Shown piece after piece: positions 7,354 through 28,287 of a stretch of 64,000 bases of DNA. Below the pieces are notes generated by a model. It was not told the origin of the DNA, searched no databases, and was given only the letters and a program-made list of their open reading frames with translations. Location: assembly GCA_000004695.1 (NCBI GenBank), contig CM000152.2:1888001-1952000 (forward strand), written 5' to 3'. The DNA comes from Dictyostelium discoideum (lineage: Eukaryota). A program made the translations under genes and the position numbers. Within the stretch, counting starts at the first letter, position 1; each line of letters opens with the position of its first letter.

Positions 7354-8877
7354 ATGTCATTAAATATTGAAAAAGTTAAAGAATTTAGTAATAAAGCATG
7401 GGATGAAAATATTTTACCAACACTTTCAAAATATATTGAAATTCCAAATCAATCACCATTATATGATGCAGAATGGGCAACCAATGGTTATACAGAAGAA
7501 GCAATTCAATTATTAGAGAAATGGATCTTAGCACAAGGTATCAAAGGTATTTCATGTGAAATTAAAAGAATTGAAGGATTAACACCAATTATTTTCATGG
7601 TAGTCGAAGCAACCAAAACTGAAAAAGTTAAAACTGTACTTTTATATGGTCACATGGATAAACAACCACCACTCACTGATGCATGGGATGAAGGATTACA
7701 TCCATACAAAGCAGTCATCAAGAATAACAAACTCTATGGTCGTGGTGGTGCAGATGATGGTTATTCAACATTTGCTTCAATCTCTGCAATCAAAGCATTG
7801 CAAGAACAATCAATTCCACATGATCGTTATGTAATTATCATTGAAGGTTCCGAAGAATCTGGTTCAATCCATTTACCACAATATGTTGAGAAGTTCCAAG
7901 CTGAAATTCAAATTCCATCATTGGTAGTTTGCTTAGATAGTGGTTGTGGTAACTATGATCAATTATGGATGACCTCATCACTTAGAGGTGTTTTAACTGG
8001 TGATTTAACTGTAAAGGTTTTAAATGAAGCATGTCATTCCGGTAGTGCCTCTGGTATCGTTCCATCTTCATTCCGTATTCTTCGTCAAGTTTTAGATCGT
8101 GCTGAAAATCAATTAACTGGTGAAGTCGATAAAAGATTACACGTTGAAATTCCACAACATCGTTTAGATCAAATCGCAAAATGTGCTGAAATTTTAGGCG
8201 AAACCATCTATGATGAATTCTCATGGTACAAAAATACCACTCCAGTCACTAAAGATTTAACCCAATTGATGATCAACAAAACTTGGTATCCAACTATTTG
8301 CATCACCGGTGCTGAAGGTATTCCACACACTTCAAATGCTGGTAATGTCATGAGAACTCACACCACCGTTAAAGTTAGTGTTCGTTTACCACCATCATTC
8401 AAAGCAGCTGATGCATCAACTGTATTAAAAGAAATTTTCGAAACTAATCCACCATATGGTGCTGAAGTTACCTTCAAAATGGATAAATGTGCTTCAGGTT
8501 GGGATTCACCACAAACTAGACCAGAATTAGAAAAAGCATTAGGAGAAGCTTCAAATCTTTTCTTTGGCAAAGACCACGTATACATGGGTGAAGGTGGTTC
8601 CATCCCATTCATGAAAATGTTACATGACCGTTTCAATTGTCAATTTATCGTTACTGGTTTATTAGGTCCAGGTTCAAATGCTCATGTTAGTATCTTTATT
8701 AAAATTTTTTTTTTTTTTTTTCCAAATCATTTTCCATTATCAATACTAACAAACATATTTATTTTATAAAATTATATACATATATAGGGTCCAAATGAAT
8801 TCTTAGATATTCCATTTGCCAAGAAATTATTAAGTTGTGTTATTTATTTATTAGATGCTCATTCCAAGTTTGATTAA
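7354..8877 (+). CDS. M20A-family metallodipeptidase, similar to cytosolic nonspecific dipeptidase CNDP2/Dug1. Two exons: 7354..8685 and 8788..8877, about 473 aa.
   Basis: 'TVLLYGHMDKQPP...NNKLYGRGGADDGYSTFASISAIKAL...IIIEGSEESGS' matches the CNDP metal-binding blocks. The C-terminal 'GEGGSIPFMKM...GPGSNAH|GPNEFLDIPFAKKLLSCVIYLL' is restored across a GTTAGT...TATAG intron. Confidence 0.7.
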
Positions 8878-9151
8878 ATAAATAAACCTTTATTTCATTA
8901 TATCTTTAAAATCATTTTATTATTTTATTATTATTTTTATTTTAAATTTATTTAATAATTTAATATATTAATGGAAATCCAATTCACTATTTCCAATTAA
9001 TAATGAAGGTTTAAACAAATTCAACAAATTTTAACACAAACACAATATCTAATTTTTTTTTAAGTATTTTAACATTCTAATAAATAATAAATAATACAGA
9101 TTAAAAGTTTCTTTTTTAAAAAATTTTGTTTTATTTAATAATTAAGGTGAA

Positions 9152-9452
9152 TTAACAACATCTACGATGACGACGACCGATATCAATGTCAAAGTTAATA
9201 ACATTTACATTTGAACCACCACCACAACCTCCACAACCATTATTGAAACCACCTAAACCGCCCCATCCTCCAAAATCATTATCAAAACATGCTGTTGAAT
9301 TAACATTAGCCATTGATCCATTATAGTTATAGGTTGATATTGAACTTGATGTAATTCTAGTTGAATTTGAAATTGATGAAATTGAATCTAGTAAATTATT
9401 TATTATTTTAAAAATAATTAGTAATATATAATTTTCAAGTGAAGTTTTAATT
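9152..9452 (-). CDS. Small Gly/Cys/Asn-rich hssA/2C/7E-family-like protein, copy A. Two exons: 9440..9452 (ATGACAATTTTTA) and 9152..9387, 82 aa ([14 protein letters not shown]...[39 protein letters not shown]).
   Basis: A 13-nt first exon is followed by a GTAAAT donor and a ...TTTACTAG acceptor. The translation is a small glycine/cysteine-rich protein with an '[10 protein letters not shown]' tail, which is characteristic of the Dictyostelium hssA/sigN-like family as I recall it. Three paralogous copies lie nearby. Confidence 0.55.
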
Positions 9453-9870
9453 ATATTAGGAATAAAATAAAATATTTACTAAAAATTGTCATTTGTATGA
9501 TATTTATTTGTTTTTAATTTGTTTTTTTTTATTTGTATTTTATTTATTTGTTTTTTTATGTATTATTGTTTTTTTAAAAATAAATTTATAGTTTTTAAAA
9601 TTAAAAAAAATAAAAAAAAATTAATATAAAAAAGGTTGAAAGAAATATAAATTAGTTTTTGAAAAAAATAAAAGAAATTTTAAACACTTATTTTGTTATT
9701 TTATAATAAATTTCAATTTTTAAATAAACAAATCAAACAATTTAATTTATTTATATTAAAAAAAAAATATAAAAAAATAAAAATAAAATCATTTAAAAAA
9801 TAAAAAAAGTTATAAAATACAAAAAACAAATATTTAAAAAAAAAATTAAATAAATAAATAAGTATAAAAA

Positions 9871-10232
9871 ATGGCAATTTTTAGTAAATATTATTTTTTA
9901 TTTATTTTTAATTTTTTTTTTTTTTATTTTTTAAAAATAATAACTTATCATTTCTTACCATTAAAACATAATAAATAATAGAGTCAATTTCTTCAATTTC
10001 AAATTCAACTGGTTTAATGGGAAGTTCAATTGGTGCCTCTAATCTTGATGGATTTGTTAGTAATGGTAATTGAATTTCATGTTTTGATGGTTGTTGTGGT
10101 GGTTTATGTGGATGGGGTGGTTTTAATGGATTGGGTGGTAATGGTGGTTTTAATAGTGGTGGTTGTGGAGGTTCAAACACAAATATAATTAATCTTGACA
10201 TTGATATTGGTCGTCGTCGTAGATGTTGTTAA
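9871..10232 (+). pseudogene. hssA-like copy B. It has the same two-exon layout (exon 1 9871..9883 ATGGCAATTTTTA; exon 2 from 9982). An in-frame TGA at 10071-10073 truncates it relative to its paralog at 11385..11734, so it is a probable pseudogene or truncated allele.
   Basis: The sequence is collinear with copy D. A single C-to-G difference (aattGaattt versus aattCaattt) creates the stop. Downstream, the family-typical '...CFDGCCGG...[13 protein letters not shown]' is still readable in frame up to 10232. Confidence 0.45.
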
Positions 10233-10670
10233 TTCACCTTAATTTAATTAATAAATAAAAGTGATAATTTTCATCTTTTTTTCTCCTAAATTTAAAATTA
10301 AAGTTTTTATTAATTTAAATTAATACCTTTTACATTTTATTTTATTTTTGCATATTCCAAATAATTATTAAAATAATTTTAAAATTGAAACTCTTTTATT
10401 TCAATTTTAATTTCTTAGTTCCTTTGAATTATCTTTTTTAACTCCAAACTTCAGGGGGAAAAAAAATAGAATAGAGGTATATTTGGAAAAAAGGAGGAAA
10501 GAAAAAAAAAAAAAAAAAAAAAAATTTGGATTTATTAAAAATTAAGATCTTTAAAAATGAAAAATAAAAAAATAAAAAAATAAAAAAATAAAAAATTAAT
10601 TATATAATTTTTGGAAAATATCTTTAAAACAAAAATTCAAATTATTATTTTATTTATTAATTTGAGTAAA

Positions 10671-11010
10671 TTAGCAACATCTACGGTGATGACGACGACC
10701 AATATCAATGTCAAGGTTAATAACATTAACATTTGAACCCCCACCACAACCATTATTGAAACCACCTAAACCGCCCCATTCTCCAAAATCATTATCAAAA
10801 CATGCTGTTGAATTAACATTTGCCATTGATCCATTATAATTACAGGTAGCGATTGAACTAGATGTAGTTCTAGTTGAATTTGAAATTGATGAGATTGTAT
10901 CTTATAAATTGTTTATTAATTTAAAAATTATTAGTATTTTAATATTTTCAAGTGAAGTAATTTCTTAAACTTATTTTATTCCTAAAAAAATATTTACTAA
11001 AAATTGTCAT
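10671..11010 (-). CDS. hssA/2C/7E-family-like protein, copy C. Two exons: 10998..11010 and 10671..10900, 80 aa ([80 protein letters not shown]).
   Basis: This is a tandem duplicate of copy A, offset by about 1.53 kb. It has the same 13-nt first exon, a GTAAAT donor, a TATAAG acceptor and a conserved C-terminal tail. Confidence 0.55.
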
Positions 11011-11384
11011 TTTTATTTTATTTTTATTTGTTTTTTATTTGTTTTTTTTTAAATTGTTTTTATATTTTTATTTTATTTATTTATTTAAAAAGAAATTTAT
11101 AGTTTTTTTAAATTTTGCAAAAAAAAAAAATAAAAAATAAAAATAAAAAAGTGGAAAGAATAATAAACTTGTCTAAAAAAAAAAAAAAGGAAATTTAAAA
11201 CACAAATTTTGTTGTTTTATAATAAATTGCAGTTTTTAAATAAACAAATCAAACAATCTATTTAACTATTAATATTGAAAAAAAACTATTAAAAAATAAA
11301 AAATAAAATCATTTTAAAAAAAAAAGTTGTATAAATAAAAAAAAAAACTTTATTATATTTTTAAAAAAAAAATAAACAAATAAA

Positions 11385-11734
11385 ATGGCAATTTTTAGTT
11401 AATATTATTTTTTATTTATTTTTTTTTTTTATTTTTTTAAAAAATAATAACTTATCATTTACTTACCATTAAAACATAATAAATATCAGAATCAATTTCA
11501 TCAATTTCAAATTCAACTGGTTCAATGGGAAGTTCAATTGGTGCCTCTAATCTTGATGGATTTGTTAGTAATGATAATTCAATTTCATGTTTTGATGGTT
11601 GTTGTGGTGGTGGTTTAGGTGGATGGGGTGGTTTTAATGGATTGGGTGGTTTTAATGGTGGTTGTGGAGGTTCAAACACAAATATAATTAACCTTGACAT
11701 TGATATTGGTCGTCGTCGTCGTAGATGTTGTTAA
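11385..11734 (+). CDS. hssA/2C/7E-family-like protein, copy D. Two exons: 11385..11397 and 11490..11734, 85 aa ending ...[29 protein letters not shown].
   Basis: The first exon is ATGGCAATTTTTA, with a GTTAAT donor and a CAG acceptor. Exon 2 contains the supplied ORF 11525..11734. The sequence is paralogous to copies A-C. Confidence 0.55.
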
Positions 11735-11914
11735 TTTACTCTAATAATAAATTAAATGATAGTTTTTATCTTTTTTCACCTAAATTTAAAAATAAAATTT
11801 CTTCACATTCTAAATATTTAATTTTAAAGTTGAAACTATTTTTTTTTTTTTTTTTTTTGAAATAAAAGCGAAATGTAATATTTTTTAAGATCTTAGAGTA
11901 ATATATAAAACAAT

Positions 11915-12325
11915 ATGATTAGAGAAGAACAGGTATTCATTGGTTCACATTTATTTCCACCACCCTATTGTATTGAAAATTCATTAAAAAAATTAGTTGA
12001 TATGTATAATGTATTAAAATTAAATGGCACAGATAGAATAGTTTTATCTTCTTGGTTAATGTATCAATTATTGGCACTTCATCCTTTTTCTGATGGTACT
12101 GGTCGTTTATCTCGTCATTTTTGTAGTTGGTCATTGCTTTCAAATGGTTCAATATTACCAATTTCTTTTGGTAATGTAAAAGGTGTAAATAAAGGTCATA
12201 AAACTTTGATTGTGTGTGTTCAGAATTCAAGATCAAATGTAGGTATTCCAAGTGCCCTTTCAACTAGAATTCTTTTATCTCTTTTTAATTCATTAAATAA
12301 TTTAGATTCAAAACAAAAACAATAA
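11915..12325 (+). CDS. Fic/Doc-fold domain fragment ORF (136 aa) with a variant core motif HPFSDGTGRLSR. It is possibly incomplete at the 5' end or degenerate.
   Basis: The translation 'FPPPYCIENSLKKLVDMYNVLKLNG...RIVLSSWLMYQLLALHPFSDGTGRLSRHFCSWSLLSNGSILPISF' aligns to the Fic core (hxFx[D/E]GNGRxxR followed by GYPp). The N is replaced by T. No upstream exon was identified. Confidence 0.4.
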   Translation: MIREEQVFIGSHLFPPPYCIENSLKKLVDMYNVLKLNGTDRIVLSSWLMYQLLALHPFSDGTGRLSRHFCSWSLLSNGSILPISFGNVKGVNKGHKTLIVCVQNSRSNVGIPSALSTRILLSLFNSLNNLDSKQKQ

Positions 12326-13302
12326 ACCGCACTGTAAATGTTAATATAAATATCGGATCTTAATTTTTATTTTCAAATAGATAATCTTTAAATTTAAAAC
12401 TCATTTTTCCAACTCATTTTTTTTTTTTTATTTTTAAAAAAATACCAAAAAACTAATTTAAATCTAGATATATTATGAATTATTATTTTTTTTTTTTTTT
12501 TTTTTTTTTTACTAAACTAACAAAGAAAACTGCCAACAACATTAAATGGATTATTCATTATTATTTTAAGTTTACTCCTCACAATTCTCAAATGAAATCT
12601 TCATTACCATTTCTTTAAAAAAAAATCACAAAAAAATCACAAAAAATCAAAAAAAAAAAAAAAAAAGAACCAGGCAATTTTTTTTTTTTTTTAGACACGA
12701 GATATTTTGTGAAAGGAGGTAAAAAATAAAATAAAATTAAATAAATAAAAATAAATATATAAAAAATAAAAATAAAAAGAATAATATTTACATTATTAAC
12801 ATTTAAAAATAATGTTTTAGATTTTTAATTAATTATATTTAAATTTAAACGTTCAAATTAACCCGATATTTTAATAGAATTAAATATTATCATATTTTGA
12901 AAATTTTTTTTTTTTTTTTTTTTTTTGGACGTTGGTGAAAAATCATAGTACTTTTTTTATTTTTTTTATTTTTTTATTTTTTTTTTTTTTTTTACAATTT
13001 GATCAAATTGTTTGCTTGTAAAAAAAATTTTTTTTTTTTTTTTTTGTGTTTTAAATAAAAAAAAAAATAAAATAATTAAAATAGAATTATTGGACTTTAA
13101 TAAAACATTTCTATTTTTTTTTTTTTTTTTTCAAATTACATTAGAAAATAATAGTAATAATAAAAAATTGCCACAATCATCATAGTCATATTCGTTAACT
13201 TTTATATGCCTTTTCTCTCAGACACAAATCAGTTTTTTAGTTTTAGTTTTAGTTTATTTAAAGATCTCTTCAAATAATTATAATTGATCAATATCTAAAA
13301 TT

Positions 13303-14361
13303 ATGACCGATCGTAAGCCTCTTCTGTCAAAAAATGAACAGGATTACGATGAAATTAATGGAATTTCTATGGGAAATAGAGCTGTAAATCCATCAGTTCT
13401 TCAACATAATGTTGTTATTTTACCAATCGATGAAAATAGTAATAATAAAGACAATAATAGTACAAATAGTAGTAATAATAATAATAATAATAACAATAAC
13501 AATAATAATAATAATAATACATATCAAGAAATTGGTAAAGGTTCAAATACAACAACTACAAATACAACAACTACAAATACAACAACTACAAATACAACAG
13601 ATAAAAATAAAAAAAGAAAGAAGGATAAAATTCCATCTCTTTATATTGCAGAAAAAGAACAACCAATTACATTTGACGATTTTGGAATTACAGATGATAC
13701 AAATCCAATAGAAGTTAAACATCAAATTCAAAATCATATGTTTGGTTTTAAACCATTCAAAAGTAAACTTACAAAGAGAAGAGTTGAAGAACGTTCGCCT
13801 GAAGTTCAAAGTTTATATTCCGATGAGCGAAAAGATACAAATCCAAGTAAGTTTATTTATAAACATTATTAGTACAATATTTCAAAATTAATTAATTATT
13901 TATTAATTTTATATTTAAAATAATAATAATTATAATTATAATAGATTCAATTCCAAATACAATTGGAAATGTAGTTTATTGTATAATATTTGGATTCCCA
14001 TTATCAATTCTATATGTAATTTGTAGTATAATATTATGTTTAACTTATTTTGGATTACCATATGGTAAATTATTTTGGAGATTAAAAGGATTTGTTTTTT
14101 GGCCATTCGGAAAATATTTACAATTATCAACTACAAATTCATTATTTGGTCAAGATGAAGAGAGATTACCAATTAGTAGTGGAAGAAGAAGAGCTCAATC
14201 AATTGCACATAGAAAATTAACTTTATATAATTATATTGGTGCTTTTGTTTATTATCTTTTTATTGCACCATTTATTATAATTTCTGAAACTATAGTTTTA
14301 TCTTTAGCTTGGATGTTAGTTGTTTCAATTCCAACTGCAAAAGTACTTATTTTTTAAAAAT

Positions 14362-14419
<58 letters not shown>

Positions 14420-15976
14420 TTTATTAACTTAAATATTATTTTTAACAAAATATATATATATATATTAATTTTTATTTAATTTTAGAATCACACTAAATTA
14501 TTAACTCATTTAATAACAAATCCATTAAAATTAAGAATTGAAGATTATCCAAGAGCAGATTGTCAAATTTTATTATATCCAGTTGAAGCATTTAATAGAT
14601 TTTATTATAAATATACAATTAATGGAATGAATGTTGTTTTAGTTAGTGTGTATTTATTTTTTTTAAAAAAAAAAATATTTATATATATATAGAATTATTT
14701 TACTAATTTTTTATTTTTTTATTTTATTTTATTTTTAGATTTATTACCATTTGTAATTATATCATTGGTATTTGGATTCTTTTTAGAAGATAAGATAAAT
14801 CCAATTGTTATATTTATTTGTTGTTTATTATCAACAATTCCATTATCATATTATAATGGTATGGCGATTGCAAGTTTATCAGCACAAACTAGTTTTGCAA
14901 TTGGTGCACTTATTAATGCAAGTTTTGGATCGATTATAGAGCTAATTCTTTATGTTGTTTCAATTAGTGGTGCACAAGAAGAGGTAGCAAGATCAGCGTT
15001 AACAGGAGCATTATTAGGTTCAATGCTATTGATTCCAGGTTTATCTATGGTTATTGGTGGTTTAAAACATAAGGAACAACGTTTCAATCCAACTTTAATG
15101 GGAGTAAATACCATTCTTTTGATGATTGCTGTTGTTGCAGCATTTGCACCAACATTATTCTATAAAATTTATGGTAGCTTTGGATTTAGCTGTACATCCT
15201 GTATTCAACAACCAACCAATGTTACAGTGGATGGTGTTGCAATCAATGGAACCACCACCAATACATTGATGGATTGTGGTAAATGTACAATCGTCTCGTC
15301 GGATTTAGACGAAGATCCAATTTACACACAAAAAGCACGTACACTTATGTATATTTGTTCTGGTATACTTCCATTGACCTACTTCATTGGTCTTTTATTC
15401 ACATTGAAAACTCATACTCATATACTTCATGCACCACCAGAAAAGAAGAAACAAGAGCCTACTGATGAAACAAAGGAAAAGAGTATAGAATATGAATGGT
15501 CAAAATTACAATGTATCATTGTGTTATTGGCTTGTACAACCATGTTTGCATTGGTATCAGAGAAAATGGTTGGTACGATCGATCCAGTGGTTAGTGCATT
15601 GGGTTTAACACATGAATTTTTAGGTGTAACCATTCTTGGTATCATTCCATCCGCTGCAGAGTATCTAAATGCCGTCCAATTTGCAATTCATAATAATATG
15701 CCTTTGGCTTTAGAAATTGGTGCTTCTGCTGCCGTTCAAATCACTTTATTCCAAATGCCAGTATTGGTTTTCATTTGTGCAGTTTATAATCATCTAAGTA
15801 GTGAAGGATCTTTCACTTTAATTTTCCCATTAATGGATTTCTTTGCTATCTTTTTTGGTGTAATGGTTATGAATTTAGTATTTTCAAATGGTAGAACAAA
15901 TTATTTCATTGGTTCAACTCTAGTTATCATTTATTTAGTAATTGTATTTTGTTTTTATTTTACTCCAGTTGCTTGA
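13303..15976 (+). CDS. Cation/H+ exchanger of the CaCA/CAX family (Ca2+:H+ antiporter-like) with a long N-terminal extension. Four exons: 13303..13846, 13945..14342, 14486..14645 and 14739..15976, about 779 aa.
   Basis: Two alpha-repeat signatures are present: 'GALINASFGSIIELILYVVSISGAQEEVARSALTGALLGSMLLIPGLSMVIGG' and 'LGVTILGIIPSAAEYLNAVQFAIHNNMPLALEIGASAAVQITLFQMPVLV'. Many TM helices follow. Exon 1 is hydrophilic with poly-N/poly-T tracts. Exon 2 is a hydrophobic block ('GFVFWPFGKY...') resembling the DUF307/YccF-type extension seen on fungal CAX-like proteins. Donors are GTAAGT, GTACTT and GTGTGT, and phases check against ORFs 13303 and 14765. Confidence 0.65.
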
Positions 15977-25377: not shown

Positions 25378-28287
25378 TTATTTCTTCTTTTTAGTTTTTG
25401 ATGGATTTGTTTGAGATGATTTATTTGTTTTCTTTGCTGGAATTGTGATGACTGGACTTGAACTTTCAAAAGCCAAACCTGGTTCATCACTTCTTGCTAA
25501 AAGATATTCATTCAAAAAGATATTGACCTCTGAACTATAACCAAGACATTCTTGAGCGCATTCACGAATTTCACTTTCAGTTTTCATTGAACAAAGGAGT
25601 TCAGTGATAACAGAGACATCATTGCTAGTTAATGCCTTCAATTGTTGATGACACCATTTGATGAAATCTGGTCTAGCTTGACCTGGTACGGTGGTTGTGG
25701 TTGTTGGTTTTTTATTCAAGGTTGAAACTGGTGTATGCTTACTAACGATGGTGGCTTGTCTATTTGGTAAAATGTTTAAGGTTGGATATTCGTTGAATGA
25801 ACCGACTTGTTGTTGAACTGGTGCATTACTTCTAACAGAGAGTGATGGTTTGGCGGTGGTATGTTCTGACCAGAAATCATCAGTTGGTCTGCTTGTCATC
25901 TTATTGACTGCGGCAGATGATAAAGTGGCTGGTTGAGATGGTTGAGATGGTTGTGATACGTTGTTAATGTTGTTATTGTTGTTGTTATTGATTGAAATTG
26001 GTGAATATGAAGAATGGTTGTTGTTGTTGTTTGGTTTTCTTTCATCAATTGACCATGGTGATGAGGCGTTGAAAGTTGATTTTTGATGTTCTTGTTGAGC
26101 TTGTTGTTGTTGTTGTGCTAATTGTTCTTGTTGTTGTTTCTTTTCCTTTTCTTTGGCTTGTTCTCTCATGACATCAGAGAGTGATACTGGTTTCTTTCTT
26201 TCAAAGTCAGATGCATTATCAACGATTGGTTGTTCTTTCTTTTCACGAGCTCTCTCTTCCTCTTGGATATCTTTTAATGATAATGATTTAACGCCAAGAT
26301 CTACTGACCAAGTTGGTGTGCCTGCACCTGCCCATTTCATAACATTGCTAGAACCATGATTTTTGCTATTTTCAATGTTTCTAATTTTGGCCTCCTCCAT
26401 CTCTCTCTTCTTTTGCTCTCTTTCCTCTGCTTGAATCTCTGCTAATGATTTCTTCTTTGGAACAACTGATTCTGATGGAGCCCATGGATTTGCGGCTGAA
26501 ATGATATTTGTTTCTGTTGTGGTGGTTGTAGTTGTGGTTGCAGTGGTGTTATTATTGGTGATGGTAGTGGTAGATGTGTTGTTAGTGGTAGTGGTTTGTA
26601 TGGTGTTATTATTAATTTCTTCAATAGCATTTTGAATGGAAGCTTCTTCTTGTTCCTCTTCAATATCAATTGGAGCTTTTAATTCTTCAGTTTGGACGCT
26701 AAGGTGAGCAGTTGTGGTTGTTTTATTTTCTTGGTTATTTTGTTTAATTGATGTAGTCCAAACACCTTCATCTTCATTATCTTGTTGTTGTTGTTGGTAG
26801 GTGGTGGTTGAGGTTGTTTGTTGTTCAACTTGAGTTTGTTGTTCAGTGGTTGGTTGTTGTGGTTGCTCAACTGTATTTTCGTCCTCTTCTATGTTGATTT
26901 CTTCAGTTTGTTGTTCTAATGGTTCTTCTGGTTGGGATTGTTCTACTTGTTGTTGTTGCTGTTGTTGTTGTTGGTGTAAAAGTGCTTGTTGTTGTTGTTG
27001 AAGTAAGAGTGCTTGTTGTTGTTGAAGATAATAGTTTTGTTGTTGTTGGACTTGTTGGACTTGTTGAACTTGTTGTTGAGCTTGTTGTTGTTGTTGTTGA
27101 GCTTGTTGTTGTTGGAGCATATGTTGGAAAAGTTGGATTTGGGATTGTTGAGATTGTGGTGTTTGGATTGGTTGGAATTGTGTGTATTGATATTGAATTT
27201 GCATTAATTTTTGTTGATGTAACATACATTGTTGAGTATAATGTTCTTGTAATTGTTGGAGTTGTTGGAGTTGAAGTTGAGTTTGGTTATTTTGTTGTTG
27301 AAGTTGAAGTTGTTGGAATTGTTGGGTAATTGAACTAATGTATTGTTGGAACATAACAATTTTTTGTTGCAACATAATTTGTTGTTGATATAACATATAT
27401 TTGTAAGCTTGTTCACTTTGTTGTTGTGATTGATTATGTGGTTGTTGTCCCCACATTTGTTGCCACATTTGTTGTTGTTGTTGTTGTTGTTGTGATTGAT
27501 GATGTTGTTGATCAAATATTGAGTGTTGTTGTGGTTGTTGTTGTTGTTGTGGTTGTGGTTGTGGTTGTTGTTGTTGTGGTTGTTGTTGTGGTTGTTGTTG
27601 TTGTGGTTGTTGTTGTGGTTGTTGTTGTTGATGTTGTTGGTGTTGTGGATGTTGATGTTGATGTTGAGGTTGTTGTTGTTGATATTGTGGAGAACTAGTT
27701 CTTTCAGCTGGTGTATCATTAGAATCACTAATTGGATTAATACCAAAGGTAGAAGTTGTAGTAGTAGTAGTTGGATTGGATGATGATGAAGTTGGTGAAG
27801 TTGGTTCTAATGGACCAAAAGAGTTCATATCCTTTTTCTTTTGATCATCAAAGAGTGTTGGTTTCAAAAGATCCTTTTCAAATCTCTTTTCTAACTCCTC
27901 TTCGATGGAATCATGATCAAGTGAATCATCATCGTTCTCTGTGGAATTTTGGCTACTTGCGTCATCCTTTTCAAAGACTTTGAGATCACTAACCGATGAG
28001 AATGGAGCATCTGGATATGCATTCAACAACTTTTTCAATTCAACAAAATTGCCTTCACCTCTCTTTACCATTAAAGATACTGAAAAATAACCTGCTTTGT
28101 TCCAAGAGTCCATTTCCATACTACTGAAAGGTCCTTGAGTGCAATTTTGTGGATCTAAATAATACCATACCTTTCTATCATCATCCTTATTGGCTCTCCA
28201 ACTAGAAGATTGAGATGATGGTGATGGTGAATTTGCCCATTTTGGTTTTGACATTCTATCATGAGACACTAATAATTTTTTAAAAAG

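Follow-up and report, generated by a model that had tools for sequence, protein, structure and literature searches.

Three intact genes and one decayed copy in a small hssA/2C/7E cluster on chromosome 3 of Dictyostelium discoideum

What is encoded by the tandemly repeated stretch at positions 9152-11734 of the window, the 64,000 nucleotides of the D. discoideum AX4 genome (chromosome 3) analysed here, and does every one of its four gene copies still specify a protein? A preliminary description had recognized four small paralogs, one of them interrupted by a stop codon, in DNA for which a mechanical search for open reading frames lists only antisense frames. We are highly confident that the locus is a small, annotated hssA/2C/7E cluster in which A, C and D are intact and B is a pseudogene, a grading that applies jointly to the whole explanation, i.e. 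to identity, history and function. The cluster is an ordinary one, built like about 100 known relatives.

The four copies form two head-to-head pairs in tandem, A(-)/B(+) and C(-)/D(+), with a repeat every ~1.5 kb, as initially proposed; the direct-repeat families in the cluster have spacings of 1494-1522 nt. Homology between the units extends over about 9122-10300 versus 10641-11800, and a unique spacer of ~0.33 kb separates them: of the stretch at 10233-10670, into which B and C extend their 3' flanks, just ~70 bp at the start and ~30 bp at the end show homology to the other unit, everything between them being unique. Each pair consists of one MTIFN-type and one MAIFK-type gene that diverge from a common AT-rich intergenic region of ~375 bp. 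The 13-nt exon together with its GT donor, ATGRCAATTTTTAGT, occurs exactly four times in the window, at 9478-9492(-), 9871-9885(+), 10996-11010(-) and 11385-11399(+), where 0.02 matches are expected by chance; four were reached in none of 100 shuffles.

Gene A (MTIFN-type, 9152-9492, minus strand) is composed of exon 1 at 9480-9492 with the ATG at 9490-9492, an intron at 9388-9479 and exon 2 at 9152-9387. Copy B (MAIFK-type, 9871-10232, plus strand) has exon 1 at 9871-9883, the intron at 9884-9981 and exon 2 at 9982-10232; gene C (MTIFN-type, 10671-11010, minus strand) has exon 1 at 10998-11010, the intron at 10901-10997 and exon 2 at 10671-10900; and gene D (MAIFK-type, 11385-11734, plus strand) has exon 1 at 11385-11397, the intron at 11398-11489 with the donor GTTAAT and exon 2 at 11490-11734. 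The strands and the limits of B, C and D thus agree with those first given; the end of A lies at 9492, not at 9452. In all four spliced models a 13-nt first exon is followed by an intron after the first base of codon 5, as had been claimed. With introns of 92, 98, 97 and 92 nt in A, B, C and D and second exons of 230-251 nt, all four copies have the standard structure of the family, which is a coding exon 1 of 13 nt, an intron of ~65-130 nt and an exon 2 of ~180-290 nt (PMC6198379, PMC2257962). The spliced products have 82 (A), 80 (C) and 85 (D) amino acids; B would give 87 if read through. The Gly-rich core of B contains an internal 18-nt repeat, GGTGGTTTNAATGGATGG, at 10098-10139 (plus strand) that encodes GGF/LNGW. 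An equivalent array is present in D at 11609-11658, and the in-frame differences in length among the copies have probably arisen from this repeat.

After splicing, A, C and D give products that do not differ at any residue from the AX4 proteins XP_641776, XP_641778 and XP_641779, which are named 'hssA/2C/7E family protein' and are all encoded on one 6.36-Mb contig. The similarity to hssA/2C/7E proteins, which the preliminary description had set as its own test, therefore exists in the form of exact matches. In UniProt the same products are UPF0512 proteins P (A; XP_641776.1 / Q54X01), Q (C; XP_641778.1 / Q54WZ9) and R (D; XP_641779.1 / Q54WZ8). They are small (80-85 residues, where the family is defined by Gly/Ser/Cys-rich products of <120 residues) and contain 14-24% Gly, 12-15% Ser, 11-15% Asn and five to six Cys. 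A, C and D begin with M-x-(I/L)-F-x-S-I-S-S-I-S-N and end with N-(I/V)-I-N-x-D-I-D-I-G-R-R-..-R-C-C, as is characteristic of the UPF0512 subfamily, and N67, N69, I71, N72, D74, R79, C84 and C85 are invariant in an alignment of 25 members. The common C-terminal motif noted earlier is indeed present in all four copies; B ends in GRRRRCC and is one Arg/His shorter than had been written.

The Pfam profile PF05710 (HssA/B-related) gives scores of 28.3, 20.6 and 19.4 bits for A, C and D, so that only A is above the gathering score of 21.4 and C and D are just under it; 18 of the 25 subfamily members match the profile at E<=0.01. A profile search returned 39 relatives. Every one belongs to a Dictyostelium species (discoideum, cf. 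discoideum, firmibasis, citrinum or purpureum), and HssA- or SigN-named proteins were not reached at E<=0.001. The link of the cluster to HssA and SigN is made by PF05710, the database names and the list of Vicente et al. 2008, who reported 96 sigN-like genes (PMC2257962). In the supplement to that study, sigN167 (chromosome 3, 82 amino acids, intron of 91) fits A and sigN170 (chromosome 3, 85 amino acids, intron of 91) fits D. We infer that A is probably DDB_G0279293 and sigN167, that C is probably DDB_G0279295 and that D is probably DDB_G0279297 and sigN170. These three presumed DDB_G identifiers were not found in the RNA-seq and comparative literature and supplements searched, and the cluster genes are absent from the searchable cell-type-enriched tables of Kin 2018 (PMC6198379). 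According to Kin et al. 2018 the hssA family has nearly 100 genes with a 13-bp first exon (PMC6198379); its growth has proceeded through the copying of gene pairs in opposed orientation, and its hallmark is the 13-nt exon (PMC2257962; PMC6198379).

One could argue that the 13-nt exon is not used at all and that the real genes are unspliced, being either the internal MGSS frame of B and D, which starts with an ATG at codon 17, or the proline-rich antisense frames at 9908-10201(-) and 11455-11700(-), which, as noted before, are all that the list of open reading frames contains here. We consider this hardly credible. The 13-nt exon with its donor is exact in four of four copies and is kept in every relative examined at four other loci, and no part of the family is better conserved than SISSISNST, the residues that separate the internal Met from the acceptor. 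The curated proteins are the spliced products, and the exon structure of sigN1 was established by comparison of cDNA with the genome (PMC2257962). On the antisense strand the open stretches range in length between 31 and 106 amino acids, are broken in A and C and in the D. cf. discoideum copies A' and D', have no Pfam match and are an expected by-product of GGN-rich sense codons, and dN/dS in the sense frame is below 1. Both the antisense proline-rich frames and the unspliced MGSS frame were rejected as gene models. That A, C and D are spliced and expressed is predicted from the curated models and the precedent of the family.

Copy B differs. A single C-to-G change at 10072 has converted a TCA (Ser), present in D and related copies, to a TGA at 10071-10073, as had been described; the product that is left has 34 amino acids, not ~39, and the frame beyond the TGA stays open to the conserved C-terminus, again as described. 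A second D. discoideum assembly, GCA_054883475.1 (L002), has the same TGA; it differs from the window by three mismatches in 16.4 kb and therefore confirms the base call but says nothing on fixation in nature. The truncated product is absent from the protein collection, and an intact counterpart was not found. Since the split of B and D, ten substitutions have accumulated in exon 2 of B versus none in D, and the introns show the reverse (one versus five). Copy B is therefore decaying. The dS of 0.055 between B and D, the TGA in two assemblies and the uneven exon changes all support the original view of B as a young pseudogene.

Is it conceivable that B still works, either as an RNA or because the TGA is read through or recoded to give the 87-residue protein? 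B retains an intact promoter, 13-nt exon and splice sites, and its frame stays open after the TGA. A frame-shifted hssA still suppressed the phenotype of a STATa hypomorph, which points to the transcript (Shimada 2008, as reported in PMC6198379), so that members of the family may act at the level of RNA. Moreover, at the locus in D. cf. discoideum the only MAIFK-type copy, that of D, has a separate in-frame stop (TAG, codon 27), which may be read as tolerance of stops. However, the distribution of changes since the B/D split, with introns reversed relative to exon 2, indicates that coding constraint on B has been lost, and several conserved residues of B have been replaced non-conservatively (S>L, D>G, G>C, G>S). 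Scans of the whole window for Rfam families and for tRNAs found nothing, with no family including SECIS at gathering score, so that recoding of the TGA has no SECIS or other non-coding RNA behind it. In addition, the sibling species D. cf. discoideum has lost B entirely. A functional B is therefore very unlikely, and we regard B as a pseudogene.

The intact copies behave differently in that dN/dS is 0.14 for A-C, 0.23 for A-A' and 0.44 for D-D', although these values, like the statistics on gene conversion given below, come from very short sequences and from alignments of AT-rich DNA. Judged by these ratios, A/C and D are under purifying selection on the protein, which would mean that their products act as proteins and not merely as RNAs.

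The divergence at silent sites also bears on the history of the locus. dS increases from 0.055 (B-D) over 0.111 (D-D') to 0.242 (A-C), and is 0.12 for A-A'. Since dS of A-C is twice that of A-A', the duplication of the pair probably predates the split of D. discoideum and D. cf. discoideum, and the cluster cannot well be called 'actively duplicating', as it had been; this was overstated. Since the species split the locus shows loss, decay and probable gene conversion, and no new copies. The introns of B and D differ at 6 of 91 sites, compared to 22 of 91 in A and C (p=0.0017), and the intergenic regions of the two units differ at 70 of 363 sites versus the 6 of 91 in the B/D introns (p=0.0027). 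Such uneven neutral divergence across the unit suggests gene conversion between B and D. Accordingly ordered, the gene pair would have been duplicated in tandem, probably before the species split; the B and D gene bodies would later have been homogenised, probably by gene conversion; and B would then have gained the TCA>TGA nonsense change and have been drifting since. A two-step origin, in which B is a recent copy of D inserted beside A, was also considered but is not favoured, as the identity profile has no clean step at the D. cf. discoideum breakpoint (about 9672). Duplication of the whole unit followed by B/D gene conversion is thus preferred, but not proven.

The intergenic regions of A-B (9493-9870, 378 bp) and C-D (11011-11384, 374 bp) are presumed bidirectional promoters. 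They are 81% identical (ungapped) and have a GC content of 7-9%, with 7% in the A-B region. Blocks common to the A-B region and the D. cf. discoideum loci include AAATTTATAGTTTTT, AAACAC..ATTTTGTT.TTTTATAATA, AATCAAACAAT and AAAATCATTT. Neither intergenic region contains a G-box-like string or any 8-mer with at least five G/C. This is different from the promoters of SigN group 2, for which GBF-like G/C-rich boxes have been reported (PMC2257962), boxes that are no family-wide requirement. Because the intergenic regions of the cluster are devoid of them, its genes may be regulated differently from the family members studied.

The closest relatives are the other UPF0512 proteins of AX4, encoded on the 3.6-Mb chromosome (L, M, J), the 8.5-Mb chromosome (A, B) and the 5.1-Mb chromosome (C, D, U). 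With 75-91 amino acids, the N-terminus M(A/T)IF(K/N)SISSISNST, the motif NS(I/T)(A/S)CFD, a Gly-rich core and a C-terminal part that begins with N(I/V)IN(L/I), they resemble the products of the cluster and are 63-79% identical to D; they are further members of the subfamily at other loci, and genes A, C and D themselves encode members P, Q and R. The SigN groups 1 and 2 on chromosome 2 share with the cluster a 13-nt exon-1 reading frame, a single short intron, a small Gly/Ser/Cys-rich product and duplicated opposed pairs (PMC2257962). However, their clusters have 6-7 copies instead of the four found here, and the identity to SigN1 listed there is just 20-32% (PMC2257962). The family name, the two-exon structure with its 13-bp first exon and PF05710 are common to the cluster genes, to hssA (DDB_G0280999) and to the cup-specific clade of hssA-like genes, for example DDB_G0276063 and DDB_G0276687 (PMC6198379). 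Tandem head-to-head pairs are also found at locus L004 of D. firmibasis and locus L003 of D. cf. discoideum. These two loci and L005 lack synteny with the window and were rejected as counterparts; they served for comparison of architecture only.

What the products do can be deduced only in outline. Going by the literature on the family, these small, probably disordered Gly/Ser/Asn/Cys-rich proteins would be made in multicellular development and probably have redundant roles that may be structural, adhesive or associated with vesicles or matrix. An AlphaFold2 model built on the 25-sequence alignment has a mean pLDDT of 40.6, and no hydrophobic segment was found in the cluster products. With C84 and C85 invariant next to a run of Arg, and with neither a hydrophobic segment nor a confident fold, it is tempting to speculate that the GRR.RRCC-COOH tail is a lipidation or membrane-targeting signal, either by double prenylation as in Rab proteins or by palmitoylation beside a basic patch; from the sequence of the tail, we take this to be an improbable candidate. 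The polybasic CC tail was seen only among the UPF0512-type relatives returned by the searches. A lipidated tail, if real, would tether small disordered proteins without a signal peptide to vesicle or plasma membranes. Vesicular staining has been reported for SigN proteins, which belong to another subgroup (PMC2257962); a lipid anchor would explain this staining and give the whole subfamily a mechanism.

As a discovery the locus matters little, since the genes are annotated and the family is described: the three intact genes are already in GenBank, RefSeq and UniProt, and the architecture of the family was published in 2008 and 2018. Minor additions made here are the TGA of B in a second assembly, the decay of B, the dN/dS values, the uneven divergence and the differences in D. 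cf. discoideum. The locus is a compact example of birth and death in a lineage-specific developmental family, with duplication, probable gene conversion, a nonsense mutation and a deletion in a sibling species. It also illustrates that tracks based on open reading frames, and even recent automated annotation, miss a whole class of genes; the automated annotation of L002 calls none of the four cluster genes.

The gene next to the cluster, at 11915-12325, is DDB_G0279299. Upstream is a gene for an M20 peptidase, probably DDB_G0279291, which is named in a paper on uncharacterised peptidases; Pfam M20 domains match the syntenic peptidase gene in the loci L001 and L002.

Four hssA/2C/7E-like mini-genes, A to D, are present in the window, which is very AT-rich (GC ~19-36% per 2-kb step). 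Sequence reading and enumeration of splice models confirmed their strands and two-exon structure. Copy A (9152-9492, minus strand; the upper bound of 9452 in the preliminary description was wrong) has an intron of 92 nt and a product of 82 aa, copy C (10671-11010, minus strand) an intron of 97 nt and a product of 80 aa, and copy D (11385-11734, plus strand) an intron of 92 nt and a product of 85 aa. Copy B (9871-10232, plus strand, intron of 98 nt) encodes 34 aa before a stop and 87 aa with read-through. As described before, the first exon has 13 nt in 4/4 copies: all start with ATG(A/G)CAATTTTTA and continue with a GT donor, and the intron interrupts codon 5 behind its first base. Exactly four occurrences of the 15-mer ATGRCAATTTTTAGT are present in the 64 kb, compared to 0.02 expected. 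The claimed tandem repeat of ~1.5 kb is borne out by direct-repeat spacings of 1494-1522 nt; the homologous units are roughly 9122-10300 and 10641-11800, with a unique spacer of ~0.33 kb in between. Exon 2 harbors an 18-nt tandem repeat, GGTGGTTTNAATGGATGG, in B (10098-10139, plus strand) and D (11609-11658, plus strand). In-frame length variation among the paralogues maps to the Gly-rich core holding this repeat, consistent with replication slippage as its source.

After splicing, A, C and D encode products exactly identical to the AX4 proteins XP_641776.1 (UPF0512 protein P, Q54X01), XP_641778.1 (UPF0512 protein Q, Q54WZ9) and XP_641779.1 (UPF0512 protein R, Q54WZ8), all three named 'hssA/2C/7E family protein' at NCBI, as predicted. 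The ORF list indeed contains only antisense Pro-rich ORFs in the cluster. That antisense or unspliced ORFs are the real genes is extremely improbable: conservation within the family is highest in the 13-nt exon and in the SISSISNST segment, the antisense open stretches are erratic in length (31-106 aa) and have no Pfam match, and the curated proteins are identical to the spliced sense products. This reading was rejected on exon conservation, antisense lengths and curated-protein identity. Pfam PF05710 (HssA/B-related) matches A with 28.3 bits, above the gathering score of 21.4, and C (20.6 bits) and D (19.4 bits) are slightly under it; 18 of 25 aligned subfamily members match at E<=0.01. Homologues (27 with D as query, 39 with a profile) are Dictyostelium proteins only, from D. 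discoideum, D. cf. discoideum, D. firmibasis, D. citrinum and D. purpureum. The subfamily has three N-terminal types, MAIFK (B and D), MTIFN (A and C) and MTLFN.

AX4 has 96 sigN-like genes (Vicente et al. 2008, PMC2257962). From the supplementary table of that paper, sigN167 (chromosome 3, 82 aa, intron 91, DDB0205703) would fit A and sigN170 (chromosome 3, 85 aa, intron 91, DDB0205706) would fit D, allowing for a systematic one-base offset of the table. The structure of the gene class is already in the literature (Vicente et al. 2008, PMC2257962; Kin et al.). The observation is confirmed and its interpretation supported, yet the feature was already known and annotated; the only new points are that pseudogene B is confirmed and dated, that gene conversion is hinted at, and that the locus is compared with that of a sibling species.

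In copy B, positions 10071-10073 read TGA, where D has TCA, and the frame is open 3' of it as far as the common C-terminus. The reported truncation is real, but its length is 34 residues, not ~39. The TGA recurs in the independent D. discoideum assembly GCA_054883475.1, which has one mismatch to 8800-12000 (at 10244) and three in 16.4 kb overall; this excludes a base-calling error and speaks to assembly accuracy, not to natural populations. An intact B-like protein is not found in the protein collection. When B-D differences were polarised with two outgroup copies, exon 2 had 10 B-specific and no D-specific substitutions (two-sided binomial p = 2×0.5^10, ~0.002, computed by hand), whereas the intron had one and five, respectively. 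Therefore, constraint is gone from the coding sequence of B and conserved in D, and since B-D dS is only 0.055, the decay is recent. That B still functions via its RNA or by read-through is very unlikely: the exon-specific asymmetry speaks against it, as do the lack of any match to Rfam families, SECIS included, in the window and the absence of B from the sibling species D. cf. discoideum. The proposal that copy B is a young pseudogene is thus supported.

In D. cf. discoideum (GCA_054859205.1), the syntenic interval, with flanks 86-91% identical to the window, contains an A orthologue (A'), a C-type and a D-type copy (D'); window ~9672-10510, including B, is missing there. Synonymous divergence of A-A' (0.12) is half of that of A-C (0.24), which suggests that the pair duplication is older than the species split. 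B-D, at 0.055, is younger than D-D' (0.11). Neutral divergence is uneven within the duplicated unit: the B/D introns differ at 6/91 sites, compared to 22/91 in the A/C introns (p=0.0017) and 70/363 in the intergenic regions (p=0.0027). In the simplest reading, an old duplication of the whole gene pair would have been followed by gene conversion over the B/D gene body (about 9853-10295) and then by the nonsense mutation in B. This order is only moderately secure because the sequences are short and AT-rich. Birth-and-death with conversion fits the locus better than 'actively duplicating', which was overstated.

At the syntenic locus, D' (L001:6629-6979, minus strand) is the sole MAIFK-type copy, and its codon 27 is an in-frame TAG (…ASNL*GFASN…); the AX4 codon is GAT and the stop is independent of the TGA in B. 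Both species thus have a damaged or lost MAIFK-type pair partner, and intact MTIFN-type copies. Head-to-head, tandem-repeat layouts as in the window are also seen at two non-syntenic loci. In D. cf. discoideum (L003), a MAIFK gene again lies opposite an MTIFN gene. In D. firmibasis (GCA_036169595.1, L004:4929-8361 and 13991-15393), eight UPF0512-like gene calls, paired head-to-head (-,+), form two nearby arrays, but all six modelled genes are of the MAIFK type. The MTIFN type may have arisen later, in the discoideum lineage.

Automated annotation pipelines mishandle the 13-nt first exons. The gene calls of GCA_054883475.1 include none of the four mini-genes (L002:4963-8001, DNA 99.97% identical), and several models from other new assemblies continue beyond the CC stop and so gain spurious extensions (P0021, 111 aa; P0025, 122 aa).

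A, C and D are under protein-level purifying selection (dN/dS 0.14 for A-C, 0.23 for A-A', 0.44 for D-D'). Their products (80-85 aa) are Gly/Ser/Asn-rich with 5-6 Cys, have no hydrophobic stretch usable as signal peptide or membrane span, and AlphaFold gives no confident fold (pLDDT 40.6). A speculative and rather unlikely reading takes the invariant C-terminal GRR.RRCC as a signal for lipidation and membrane targeting. Between the two genes of each pair lies a common intergenic region of ~375 bp with a GC of 7-9%. Blocks in these regions (9493-9870, 11011-11384), including AAACAC..ATTTTGTT.TTTTATAATA, TAAATAAA..AATCAAACAAT and AAAATCATTT, are conserved across both units and in D. cf. discoideum, even at a paralogous locus, and are candidate cis-regulatory elements. 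Unlike the SigN group 2 promoters, for which GBF-like G/C boxes are described, neither region contains such boxes or a G-box. From the family literature, the genes would be expressed during multicellular development with redundant functions, possibly in adhesion, extracellular matrix or vesicles; deletion of 13 sigN genes gave no phenotype (PMC2257962).

To the left lies an M20 peptidase gene (7354-8886, one intron), probably DDB_G0279291, since this ID is named in a paper on uncharacterised peptidases and the syntenic gene has Pfam M20 domains. To the right, DDB_G0279299 (11915-12325, plus strand) encodes a 136-aa Fic/Fido-domain protein (PF02661, E=6e-10). By ID numbering between these neighbours, A, C and D are presumably DDB_G0279293, DDB_G0279295 and DDB_G0279297. 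The motif of DDB_G0279299 is HPFSDGTGR; the canonical Fic motif is HPFx(D/E)GN(G/K)R. D. cf. discoideum lacks this gene at the syntenic position, where ~420 bp stand in for ~11757-12738, a presence/absence difference directly beside the cluster. Both GC content and skew peak in the window at 25378-28269 (minus strand; GC 0.36, GC skew +0.39, AT skew -0.43), a stretch that is a 963-aa polyglutamine-rich ORF with an N-terminal GYF-like motif by eye (WYYLDPQNCTQGPF…), probably DDB_G0279309.
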